Shown here piece by piece: positions 2,245 through 64,000 of a stretch of DNA of 64,000 nt (position 1 is the stretch's first letter; each line of letters starts with the position of its first letter). This DNA is from Escherichia phage UPWr_E1: the sequence record PP418985.1; one strand, given 5' to 3'. The notes under the pieces were generated by a model, which saw nothing but the letters and a program-made list of their open reading frames with translations, searched no databases and was not told where the DNA came from. The position numbers and the translations under genes are program-made.

Positions 2245-3302
2245 TATGCCGCACTCCCAAATATAGTACCACGGGAAAGTGTCAAGATCTCCCTAAATGA
2301 TACTTCCAGAACAAAGGTACTAGGCAAGTTAGGAGAAATAGCAAGGCCATTAAACTTACCATCAGGCGACTTGTCCAGACGTACACTTGAGATCTGAGCG
2401 GGACCAAATGCATCGCTACGCCCTTCAAATGATGTACGCTTACCGAAGTTAGAGATCATCCATATTGTCGGGTTAGATACAGTAATCACGTTGGATAGGA
2501 AATCAGTGATCCCCTCAAAAAGAGTATCATTTTTCTTTGCTTCGGCTGGCGTCGATTTGCTCAACAGCGTATTTTTATACCATGCATCAACTTCCGCTTT
2601 TAATTCTTTTGCGGTGCTGGAAATACCGCTAGAACCATAAGACAATTCTAAAAACGTTTCGTATATGATCAGAATATTGCGAAGGTCTTCAATACTACGT
2701 GGGGTTAGATGCCATACATAGTTTTTAGTTCGTGCGTCAGCACCAGCATACATGCTTCGAGCAGTATTATAAATCTGTTCACCGTGATCGGCAAGGTATC
2801 CACCAGTAATACTTTCTATACCACCAAAAACGGCAGTAGATGCCATATTTGATAGAGCGCCACCTAAAGTACCGCCACCACGAGAAATAACAGATTCGCC
2901 AACATCATTAAACTTATGGCTTGCGGCGTCAACGTCAGATTGACTACGAGGAAGAAGAATATTAGCAATTGCCTCGCGGTCAAATGCAGTATTTCTTCCG
3001 CCCAGATTTAAATCAAAACCAGCAATATTAACGCTACCACCAAAACCACTAGCAACATTTTTCTTTTTTCTGAAATCACGCAATGATCCAGTTGTGCGAG
3101 ATGTATAATCATATGCAGTGAATAACAGACCATTATTATATAAGTCGTTGATATAATAACCGCTAGCATCATTACCGCTAGCACGTTCAGCGGGGAATTG
3201 AGCGGTTAATGTTTTCCCTTTATTTTTTGAGGTAAAACCAGCGGAGGTTTTAACCCCCGCTTTAAAGCTATCAACGGCATCATTGATAACACTAATTTTC
3301 AT
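2244..3302 (-). CDS. 48: Baseplate tail tube cap gp48
   Basis: 352 aa (T4 gp48 about 364 aa); synteny between 29 and 54; start/stop overlap with neighbours. Confidence 0.75.
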   Translation of the reverse strand: MKISVINDAVDSFKAGVKTSAGFTSKNKGKTLTAQFPAERASGNDASGYYINDLYNNGLLFTAYDYTSRTTGSLRDFRKKKNVASGFGGSVNIAGFDLNLGGRNTAFDREAIANILLPRSQSDVDAASHKFNDVGESVISRGGGTLGGALSNMASTAVFGGIESITGGYLADHGEQIYNTARSMYAGADARTKNYVWHLTPRSIEDLRNILIIYETFLELSYGSSGISSTAKELKAEVDAWYKNTLLSKSTPAEAKKNDTLFEGITDFLSNVITVSNPTIWMISNFGKRTSFEGRSDAFGPAQISSVRLDKSPDGKFNGLAISPNLPSTFVLEVSFREILTLSRGTIFGSAA

Positions 3303-5035
3303 TAAAAGATCCCCATATTAATTGTACCGGGTGCATCAATTCGAGTTGTAGGCGCGCCCTGTTTAATAGTTCTATTGTTTGTTACAATTTGTGTATTATT
3401 TACATTTGCCGTCTGGTTTGTCGTTTGTTGCTGGATTGCAGCTTGTTTCTGCATTTGTTCAGTACGGTCCGCTTGTCTTGCTGTTTCCGTTTCAGTTGCA
3501 GGAACAGGTTTAGTTTGAATCACACCCTTAGTTTTATCAGCATACATCTCATCAAATTTTTCAATAAGACGCTCTAACTGAGAACGATCACTTTCAACTA
3601 ATGTAGGATCTTGAACTTGCTCACGGTAAACATCAATATCCTTTTTCAACTCTCCCATTTTTTCTTTGTCATAATCACCGCTCAAGTTCTCCATAACTTC
3701 ATTAATATTATTGATCGCACCCTCGCTTTTAATTCTAAGTTTACGACTAGCAGATCGTTGTTCAGCAGAAACAGACTCATATTCCCCGCGCTTTAATTCT
3801 TCTTGTCGCTTCTCTGCGTCAACATCCTTTTGATCTCGCCAACCCAGACTAACAAGTCCTTCATTAACTTTATCTTTAATGGAGTCACCGATAGCCTCAC
3901 CAATATCACGGGCTTTTCCGGTCCAACCAGTACGCTCTCCGTATTTGTCCTCTTCATGCTCGGATTCAACTTTATCCATCAATTCAAGTTCTCTTTCGGT
4001 TGGCGTATATCCCTGTGAAACAGCAGACTTCAAAGCACCATATTCTAACTGATCAGCATAATCACCCATACCAGGGATCATGCGAAGAATTTTAGCAATA
4101 CCGGTAGTGATAATTCGATCAAGTTGGATAAAGGTTTTATAGAATGCATCACCAATACCCATAACAAGAGATTTAATTAATTCTCCATATTCACCCTTAG
4201 ACCAATAATCTCGAACTTGACGAATAGTTGTTAAAATATCGCTAATAGGACCAGCCCATTCTCCGGCCTTATCCATAAATTCATCGAATTTTGTTTCGAA
4301 TAAATCACTCCAATATCTGAAATGAATCATCAGGGTATCAATGGCAAAAACAACACCCATCAAAATAGCACCCCATTTTGCGGCTTCTGCCATAGCGGTC
4401 AAGGTGATCTTAAATAACATCCCTAAGACCTTATTAGAGATACCTATGGTTTCTTTAAATCCTCCACGAACAACTTTAAGAAGATTTTCCATAGAATCCG
4501 CATTGCGCTTATCTGCGGCGTTCTTTTTCTTCCGTTCCTCAACATCTGGTTTTTTCTTTGGAAGACCTTGATAGTTGTCATTATTAGGCTGTTCCGGTAC
4601 AGTAGGCAAAACTGGCTGAGGTGATGGCATTGTTTGCGGTTGTTCCGGTTTTTTCAGTGCTTCTTCAATCGCACCAATACCGCTAGCCATTTTACTGACA
4701 ACACCAAATCTACGTTCCATCATAACACCAAAACCACGTAATTTCTCATTCATCTGAGAAGAGAAATTATTGAGTTTTTGCAATTCTTCATAAGTTTTTT
4801 GGGTATTGCCAGCGGTAGATTGTGTATTTTCTGCCGTCAATTCATTGGCTGCGGTGTTATCCTCTACCGCACCAACAACTTCATTAGATTTTTGTTCTAC
4901 TGTCTCCGCCACCAATTCGGTAGCGGCTTGCAAATTATCAATAGAATCAAGTTTATCTAATTTGTTAAGTTTATCAATCGGATTTTCTTCCGCTTCCTTG
5001 CGCATCCCGCGAAATGATGTTAATGCGTCATTCAT
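3302..5035 (-). CDS. 29: Baseplate hub / tail length determinator gp29
   Basis: 577 aa (T4 gp29 about 590 aa); synteny; coupled to 28 and 48. Confidence 0.75.
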   Translation of the reverse strand: MNDALTSFRGMRKEAEENPIDKLNKLDKLDSIDNLQAATELVAETVEQKSNEVVGAVEDNTAANELTAENTQSTAGNTQKTYEELQKLNNFSSQMNEKLRGFGVMMERRFGVVSKMASGIGAIEEALKKPEQPQTMPSPQPVLPTVPEQPNNDNYQGLPKKKPDVEERKKKNAADKRNADSMENLLKVVRGGFKETIGISNKVLGMLFKITLTAMAEAAKWGAILMGVVFAIDTLMIHFRYWSDLFETKFDEFMDKAGEWAGPISDILTTIRQVRDYWSKGEYGELIKSLVMGIGDAFYKTFIQLDRIITTGIAKILRMIPGMGDYADQLEYGALKSAVSQGYTPTERELELMDKVESEHEEDKYGERTGWTGKARDIGEAIGDSIKDKVNEGLVSLGWRDQKDVDAEKRQEELKRGEYESVSAEQRSASRKLRIKSEGAINNINEVMENLSGDYDKEKMGELKKDIDVYREQVQDPTLVESDRSQLERLIEKFDEMYADKTKGVIQTKPVPATETETARQADRTEQMQKQAAIQQQTTNQTANVNNTQIVTNNRTIKQGAPTTRIDAPGTINMGIF

Positions 5036-62560: not shown

Positions 62561-62950
62561 ATGTTTAAATTATCTCAAAGAAGCAAAGATCGGCTTGTTG
62601 GTGTGCATCCTGATCTGGTAAAAGTCGTTCATCGTGCATTAGAACTGACTCCGGTCGATTTTGGTATTACAGAAGGTGTACGTAGTCTCGCAACGCAAAA
62701 GAAATATGTTGCGGAAGGTAAATCTAAGACTATGAAATCTCGTCATCTTCACGGTTTCGCGGTTGATGTTGTAGCGTATCCGAAAGATAAAGATACATGG
62801 AACATGAAATATTACCGCATGATCGCTGATGCATTTAAACAAGCTGGTCGAGAATTGGGTGTTCCTGTTGAGTGGGGCGGGGATTGGACTAGTTTTAAAG
62901 ATGGTCCTCATCTACAATTGCCACACAGCAAATACCCAGATCCAAAATAA
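62561..62950 (+). CDS. Peptidase M15-family (VanY / L-alanyl-D-glutamate peptidase-like) cell-wall hydrolase, putative endolysin
   Basis: Zn-ligand-type motifs SRHLHGFAVDV and GGDW...DGPHLQ typical of M15 peptidoglycan peptidases; 129 aa; GGGGG Shine-Dalgarno. Confidence 0.7.
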   Translation: MFKLSQRSKDRLVGVHPDLVKVVHRALELTPVDFGITEGVRSLATQKKYVAEGKSKTMKSRHLHGFAVDVVAYPKDKDTWNMKYYRMIADAFKQAGRELGVPVEWGGDWTSFKDGPHLQLPHSKYPDPK

Positions 62951-63006: not shown

Positions 63007-63498
63007 TTGACAATGAATATTGATGTAAAATTAGAAAGTAAAGATTTGATTTATGCTGCATGTGTTTCTGCCGTAGATGGCATCATAGAACGCCGTAAGC
63101 GACGCAATTTTGCTGATGACCTAGATTCCATCGTCTCAATCAATTTAGGGCGTCAAACAGGGCATACAGACGCTACAATCAAGTTATATGACCATTATAC
63201 GCGAAAAGGATACAGTGTCTTTATCGTTTCGACAACGCGGGAACATGTCAAAACGATCCGAGATCGCGGTCGCGGTGAAAATGTAAATATTTCAAATGTA
63301 GATTGTACGTCGATCCGAACTTTCCTGAATCCTATTACATGGCGAGGTCGTCGGCTTGACAAAACAATCTTTATCCTAGATACTACCATGCGCGGATTTA
63401 CTGACAGCGTATTGCAGTTTTTAGAATTAAATCGACTTAGTGTTGGAAGGGGTAGTGTAGAAGACCAACCTATTTTCATTGGCTTAGGCATCAACTAA
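63007..63498 (+). CDS. Hypothetical protein (163 aa)
   Basis: ORF after a hairpin; basic, Arg-rich. Confidence 0.45.
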   Translation: MTMNIDVKLESKDLIYAACVSAVDGIIERRKRRNFADDLDSIVSINLGRQTGHTDATIKLYDHYTRKGYSVFIVSTTREHVKTIRDRGRGENVNISNVDCTSIRTFLNPITWRGRRLDKTIFILDTTMRGFTDSVLQFLELNRLSVGRGSVEDQPIFIGLGIN

Positions 63499-63633
63499 TG
63501 AAAAATAAAGATAGCGTAGCTCGTCGATTCCGTGCTACAATCAATAAGAATCGTAAAGTCCAACCTGATAAACTCTATGGGGTTTTGGTTGGAAAAGTTA
63601 ATGACGAACGTCCTGATCTATAAGAGGTGAATT

Positions 63634-64000
63634 ATGGAATTTAAAGCAATTCAAATCATGAAAGGTGAGCATAAAGGTACTATTATTGGTGGACATTTCG
63701 CGCCTATGATTCTGGTATCAGAACCGAAAGCACTGATCGGCGCTAAAGTAATTGTTAGTAAAACTTTCGCAGAAGACCATGTGATCACCGCAGAAGACGT
63801 AGATTCGCTGGCACTGCACACAACTAGCTTCCGTCCGGTGATTGTAGATAATGGTGCTCCTGTTGTCGAAGGTGGTCAGCACCTAAATGTTAACGTATTG
63901 TTACGAGAAATGTTACTTGACGCGGTTGAACATCCTGAGAAGTACCCGCAGCTTACAATTCGCGTTTCTGGTTACGCAGTGCGCTTCAATAGTCTGACTC
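63634..64000 (+). CDS. grcA: Autonomous glycyl-radical cofactor GrcA/YfiD-like protein (3' end beyond window)
   Basis: [12 protein letters not shown]...[23 protein letters not shown] is near-identical to the remembered C-terminus of E. coli GrcA, including the RVSGY glycyl-radical motif. Confidence 0.85.

Follow-up and report, generated by a model that had tools for sequence, protein, structure and literature searches.

A GrcA-like glycyl-radical gene in an RB49-like coliphage: the Krischvirus orthologue of T4 vs.6

Andorfer et al. (2021; PMC8683613) name two proteins as the only experimentally validated "spare part" proteins: YfiD (GrcA) of E. coli and Y06I of phage T4. As cited there, Wagner et al. 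(2001) found that PFL activating enzyme puts a glycyl radical on YfiD and on Y06I in vitro, and that the activated proteins form a complex with oxygen-cleaved pyruvate formate-lyase (PFL) and restore its activity. A second summary of what these two proteins do biochemically is given in PMC13450708. According to PMC8683613, residues 61-127 of YfiD have the fold of PflB residues 693-759, and the disordered residues 1-60 are needed both to bind cleaved PFL and to install the radical efficiently. The T4 gene is vs.6 (T4p117, NP_049730.1), which carries the RefSeq name "autonomous glycyl radical cofactor GrcA". In 2006, vs.6 with its Gly_radical domain was reported to be conserved in six of six T4-like genomes, RB49 among them (PMC1524935).

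Papers of 2001 to 2006 already covered the family, its occurrence in RB49 and other T4-like phages, and what the T4 protein does in vitro. The gene that we describe here is the Krischvirus orthologue of T4 vs.6 (Y06I); it is real, already known and already annotated, and as a discovery it carries little weight.

The vs.6 locus and its neighbours

The window, by which we mean the whole stretch of 64,000 nucleotides of Escherichia phage UPWr_E1 (PP418985.1) that was analysed, ends inside the gene (Table 1). By direct reading, the start codon is the ATG at 63634-63636 on the plus strand, and in translation the frame stays open for 122 codons up to the last base, without a stop. Because an in-frame TGA at 63628-63630, 3 nt ahead of the ATG, closes the frame, the gene cannot extend upstream. 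The orthologues in RB49 and W115 are 417 nt long with the stop codon and encode 138 aa; by their length, the window lacks the final 16 codons and the stop. For the 16 missing residues we rely on relatives that are 96-97% identical in nucleotides. In the RB49 and W115 orthologues the C-terminal tail is PDQQRDVIARTFTESL, which differs from the GrcA tail by one residue, and the visible fragment is without the C-terminal helix. The preliminary description had read the frame as a GrcA-like spare-part protein; the in-frame stop before the ATG and the 138-aa orthologues, which fall within the ~120-140 aa of such proteins, confirm that it is small and stand-alone. The same two observations rule out a fragment of a larger pfl-like gene.

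Table 1. Features at the end of the window and the basis on which each was assigned
Feature	Position	Strand	Basis or remark
Endolysin, Peptidase_M15_4 type	62561..62950	+	Pfam E=4e-12; PHROG 465 E=2e-68; annotation
vs.8 homologue, 163 aa	63007..63498	+	PHROG 1488 E=9e-37; RB49 and RB14 annotation
Conserved small ORF, 41 aa, basic	63498..63623	+	PHROG 13848 E=3e-30; RB49p100, W115_239
Shine-Dalgarno-like AAGAGGTG	63622..63629	+	Ends 4 nt ahead of the vs.6 ATG; direct reading
vs.6 / GrcA-like gene, 5' part	63634..64000	+	367 nt = 122 codons + 1 base
N-terminal half, aa 1-71	63634..63846	+	Alignment; counterpart of the NMR-disordered half of YfiD
Structured glycyl-radical domain, visible part (aa 72-122)	63847..63999	+	phmmer alignments to 6owr and 1cm5/1h16
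RVSGY glycyl-radical motif, aa 110-114	63961..63975	+	Translation, alignment

The identity of the phage is clear from nucleotide comparison. The last 1.5 kb of the window matched 60 phage records at 90-97.3% identity, in 58 cases with 80% or more of the query covered, and every one is an RB49-like T4-type myovirus (Krischvirus, Straboviridae) with E. coli or Shigella as host. At the other end, the first 20 kb of the window corresponds to these phages' structural gene region. The earlier proposals of a phage-encoded gene and an enterobacterial host therefore both hold, as the window is from a Krischvirus, an RB49-like T4-type coliphage, and its close relatives are all phages of E. coli or Shigella.

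At the protein level, the fragment is identical to RB49 Vs.6 (RB49p099) at 121 of 122 residues and to W115_240 at 120 of 122; the latter, a 138-aa protein of phage W115, bears the annotation "autonomous glycyl radical cofactor". A match to PHROG 1209 (aa 3-122, E=8e-40) and the position of the gene both place it with the T4-like vs.6 genes. The order endolysin, vs.8, a short ORF (vs.7 in T4) and vs.6 is common to the window, W115, RB49, RB14 and T4, with vs.8 as the syntenic upstream neighbour of vs.6 in RB49, RB14 and T4. Downstream of vs.6, the T4-type relatives have regB, vs.1, vs, tk.4 and tk. The T4 counterpart that the preliminary description had mentioned is thus identified: it is vs.6, annotated as GrcA and, according to PMC8683613, the Y06I of Wagner et al. 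(2001). Beyond these close relatives, tblastn found a vs.6 homologue in 1582 phage records, which include T4-like, T5-like and jumbo phages of Escherichia, Salmonella, Klebsiella, Shigella, Yersinia, Aeromonas and Vibrio. Almost all the phages with homologues grow on Enterobacterales, Aeromonas or Vibrio, hosts that contain PFL.

Several further observations concern the surroundings of the gene. The 41-aa ORF between vs.8 and vs.6 sits where T4 has the 109-aa vs.7, and its start shares one base with the stop of vs.8 (ATGA). The endolysin, annotated in relatives as a D-Ala-D-Ala carboxypeptidase or an L-Ala-D-Glu peptidase, occupies the slot of lysozyme e in T4 and RB14, a non-orthologous enzyme in a conserved gene order. 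Upstream of it, between 57785 and 62532 on the plus strand, about 15 tiny and strongly hydrophobic ORFs of 41-90 aa lie head to tail; they are labelled 'putative membrane protein' in W115 and hypothetical in RB49. Neither tRNA genes nor Rfam families at the gathering threshold were found in the whole 64-kb window (1-64000), although the window includes a region syntenic with the part of T4 near its tRNA cluster. Next to vs.6, a consensus scan for promoters and terminators gave site numbers no higher than those in shuffled sequence. Transcription of vs.6 is probably shared with the plus-strand ORFs upstream.

A PFL-type domain behind a divergent N-terminal half

The match to GrcA is real and far beyond chance. 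The Pfam Gly_radical family (PF01228) is found at aa 78-119 with 61 bits against a cut-off of 22 (E=1.6e-16). The best match among solved structures is GrcA itself (6owr, E=1.8e-22, aa 37-122), and PflB (1h16/1cm5) matches with E=2e-19, aa 77-122 of the fragment aligning to PflB 698-743; identity to the solved structures within the domain is 87-91%. Over the last 46 visible residues, the fragment is identical to E. coli GrcA at 42 positions, to RB14 Vs.6 at 41 and to PflB 698-743 at 40. The preliminary description had claimed near-identity to the C-terminus of GrcA; the near-identity stands, but these residues align to GrcA 66-111 and stop 16 residues short of the end.

On the domain limits set for YfiD and PflB, aa 72-138 of the phage protein map onto the radical domain, and the visible aa 72-122 are the equivalent of YfiD 61-111 and PflB 693-743. 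The domain is of the PFL type with RVSGY(AV), as in the GrcA family: the RVSGY loop noted at the outset is present, and the heptapeptide RVSGYAV is intact at aa 110-116. Gly113 (GGT, 63970-63972) corresponds to Gly734 of PflB and Gly102 of GrcA.

The first half of the protein is also related to GrcA, although here the identity is weak: 19 of 50 residues are shared with GrcA and 24 of 57 with T4-type Vs.6. The similarity lies in islands, IQI.K at aa 6-10 and a 12-residue stretch at aa 37-48, and the N-terminal halves of the phage protein and GrcA share the pattern A[KR].IV[SA]K..F.ED. A further motif, G.HKGTI at aa 11-17, is common only to T4-type Vs.6 and is not in GrcA. The match to the NCBIfam model TIGR04365 begins at aa 37, model position 28. 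Because homology reaches into this GrcA-specific half, vs.6 descends from a grcA-type gene and not from the 3' end of pflB.

TIGR04365, an equivalog model with a cut-off of 170 bits, gives 234 bits for E. coli GrcA, 156 for RB14 Vs.6, 132 for full-length RB49 Vs.6 and 99 for the window fragment. Thus neither the fragment nor its full-length RB49 orthologue reaches the cut-off, and indeed every phage Vs.6 protein tested is missed. Because these include RB14 Vs.6, of the T4 type whose activity has been shown, failing the model is not evidence against function; the cut-off, tuned to bacterial GrcA, sets the phage branch apart and does not tell working proteins from inactive ones. This may explain why many phage records are labelled 'hypothetical' or mislabelled 'pyruvate formate-lyase'.

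Divergence of the gene from host grcA

The preliminary description took the high protein identity as a sign of recent capture of a host gene. Indeed, the 42 of 46 residues shared with GrcA in the glycyl-radical domain would suit a recently captured grcA that travels as a passenger without a phage-adapted role, and the T4-type 3' half, 95-98% identical to grcA at the nucleotide level, indicates that such exchange happens in this family. Yet the nucleotides of the Krischvirus gene argue otherwise. Over 46 conserved codons, vs.6 and E. coli grcA are 74.6% identical; 24 of the 42 identical residues are specified by different codons, and synonymous differences are saturated (pS 0.79). When 5426 E. 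coli genomes were searched by blastn, only the 3' 136 nt of vs.6 matched, at 74.3%.

A recent capture from another bacterium can be rejected on similar grounds. We scanned one genome per species and compared the 80 best grcA loci: the best, from Salmonella, had 78.3% nucleotide identity, the median was 71.7%, and the phage-type N-terminus was found in none of the 80. Nor does the position of the gene suit a newcomer, since it is syntenic across Krischvirus and Tequatrovirus. The GC content is 44% for the vs.6 fragment, against 48% for E. coli grcA and 41% for the window. We therefore regard a recently captured passenger gene as extremely doubtful, and the earlier suggestion falls for the Krischvirus copy.

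Selection within the genus points the same way. Compared with RB49, vs.6 of the window has a dS of 0.20 and a dN of 0.004 (dN/dS 0.018), and compared with W115 the dN/dS is 0.12. Judged by this range of 0.02-0.12, the gene is under strong purifying selection within Krischvirus, and by its divergence it is old in that lineage. Because synonymous sites are saturated and nucleotide identity is only 74.6%, the high protein identity to GrcA is a matter of constraint and not of recency. The proteins most probably stay nearly identical because Vs.6 has to fit both the PflB core of the host and the active site of PflA. We had also considered the REMLLDAVE stretch as a PflB-like adaptation; this was dropped, as the GrcA proteins of Salmonella and Pseudocitrobacter already have RETLLDAVEH.

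The Tequatrovirus genes differ in this respect. The last ~180 nt of vs.6 in T4 and RB14 match E. coli grcA at 95-98% (175 of 180 positions in T4), and upstream of this breakpoint the identity falls sharply to ~40-50%; the segments compared were, in their own coordinates, 4058-4420 for T4 vs.6, 2998-3360 for RB14 vs.6 and 1303-1686 for E. coli grcA. When E. coli grcA was compared with the phage collection by megablast, 752 records matched; identity was 95-99% in 614 of these, and the matches always cover only grcA nt ~200-384; the 5' half of grcA is in no phage record of that collection. Tequatrovirus vs.6 is therefore a mosaic, phage-type in its 5' half and host-like in its 3' half, which points to a recent capture from the host or to gene conversion by the host gene. 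Thus the idea of recent capture does fit the 3' half of the Tequatrovirus gene, but not the copy in the window, in which no such mosaic is seen: it has ~73-75% nucleotide identity both to T4 vs.6 and to grcA. The contrast between an anciently diverged Krischvirus copy and a near-host Tequatrovirus 3' half may interest those who study gene exchange between phages and their hosts.

Proposed role and comparison with known systems

Our main reading, to which we give a probability of about 0.85, is that Krischvirus vs.6, the orthologue of the T4 gene for Y06I, encodes an autonomous glycyl radical cofactor that repairs host PflB. The divergence of its N-terminal half, which has ~18 added residues and agrees with GrcA at only 19 of 50 positions and with T4-type Vs.6 at 24 of 57, counts against this reading. 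The repair of PFL proposed in the preliminary description is consistent with this, and the activity of the T4 homologue gives it experimental support, by analogy. In a micro-oxic, fermentative E. coli cell under infection, oxygen would cleave host PflB at the Gly734 radical. The phage protein would then dock on the cleaved enzyme, its N-terminal half helping recognition, and its aa 72-138 would replace the lost C-terminal glycyl-radical domain of PflB. The host activase PflA would place a new radical on Gly113, and the hybrid enzyme could again convert pyruvate and CoA to acetyl-CoA plus formate. Within a micro-oxic gut host, the outcome would be a fermentative ATP supply kept up for phage production. 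We infer from the two studied proteins that the Krischvirus protein does the same as T4 Y06I and E. coli YfiD, and that the phage benefits in vivo; neither a phenotype of a phage vs.6/GrcA mutant nor a test of such a benefit to any phage was found in the literature searched. If this reading is right, vs.6 would illustrate well how an auxiliary metabolic gene of a phage can sustain the fermentation of its host in the micro-oxic gut.

The protein might instead serve as a spare part or modulator of another glycyl radical enzyme, either the phage NrdD or TdcE of the host. TdcE is a close paralogue of PflB and is plausibly served as well. The phage family does encode NrdD and NrdG, and RB49 NrdD also has RVSGY; a role for vs.6 in nucleotide metabolism was speculated upon in 2006 (PMC1524935), and reviews leave spare parts for further glycyl radical enzymes possible (PMC13450708, PMC8683613). 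However, RB49 NrdD and RB49 Vs.6 have nothing in common beyond the RVSGY pentapeptide (BLASTP E=1.7), which makes a role as a spare part for NrdD unlikely, whereas 40 of 46 residues are identical to PflB 698-743. Genomic position does not favor NrdD either. The preliminary description had proposed looking for adjacent nrdD and nrdG genes, but in RB49 nrdG (32.6-33.1 kb) and nrdD (34.5-36.4 kb) are 17-21 kb downstream of vs.6 (53.6 kb), a distance that puts them past the window end. Moreover, T4 Y06I works with PFL and PFL-AE, according to PMC8683613, and service to TdcE would add to the role with PflB rather than replace it. We consider another enzyme as the target very unlikely.

A related thought is that the Krischvirus-specific N-terminal half alters what is recognised, so that the target would be TdcE or a different glycyl radical enzyme of the host, or activation would fall to NrdG, the radical-SAM activase of the phage itself. 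We think this decidedly unlikely; if NrdG were the activase, repair would be independent of host PflA.

Early regions of phage genomes are rich in host-takeover genes, and vs.6 could be seen as one of these: a decoy or inhibitor that titrates PflA or binds PflB, and so shuts down or redirects host fermentation. The activase recognition motif RVSGYAV is present, as such a protein would require, and the N-terminal half has diverged from that of GrcA. A mere decoy, however, would not need to be conserved in so PflB-like a form. The loop keeps all its residues, the radical glycine among them, and strong purifying selection holds the whole domain PflB-like. In addition, the T4 homologue restores activity in vitro, as reported in PMC8683613. 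A decoy thus seems very improbable to us, and repair of PflB by a phage-encoded radical cofactor remains the reading that we prefer.

Set beside the known systems, this candidate repair protein is closest to T4 Vs.6 (Y06I, NP_049730.1). Both genes occupy the same slot, after endolysin and vs.8 and before regB, vs and tk, and both proteins have the two-part architecture, the phage-specific G.HKGTI and the AK/RxIVSKTF.ED motif; in the T4-type phage RB14, the visible radical domain is 41/46 identical. They differ in length, T4 Vs.6 having 120 aa and the Krischvirus protein 138, with ~18 extra residues in the N-terminal half, and overall identity is ~60%. They also differ in their relation to the host gene, the T4-type 3' half being ~97% nucleotide-identical to E. 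coli grcA and the Krischvirus gene ~73-75%.

E. coli GrcA/YfiD (P68066, 6OWR) is likewise a stand-alone protein (~14 kDa) whose N-terminal half is variable and whose C-terminal glycyl-radical domain is of the PFL type, and it shares 42/46 residues of the visible domain and all but one residue of the orthologues' tail. Unlike it, the window gene is encoded by a phage, agrees with GrcA at only 19/50 residues of the N-terminal half and has saturated synonymous sites, and RB49 Vs.6 stays at 132 bits against the TIGR04365 cut-off of 170. The C-terminal domain of PflB (693-759, 1H16), finally, is the piece that the spare part is thought to replace, and the likeness of 40/46 to PflB 698-743 takes in the Gly734 loop. 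Nevertheless, vs.6 is not part of a 760-aa enzyme, since an in-frame stop lies directly before its ATG, and its N-terminal half resembles that of GrcA and not PflB.
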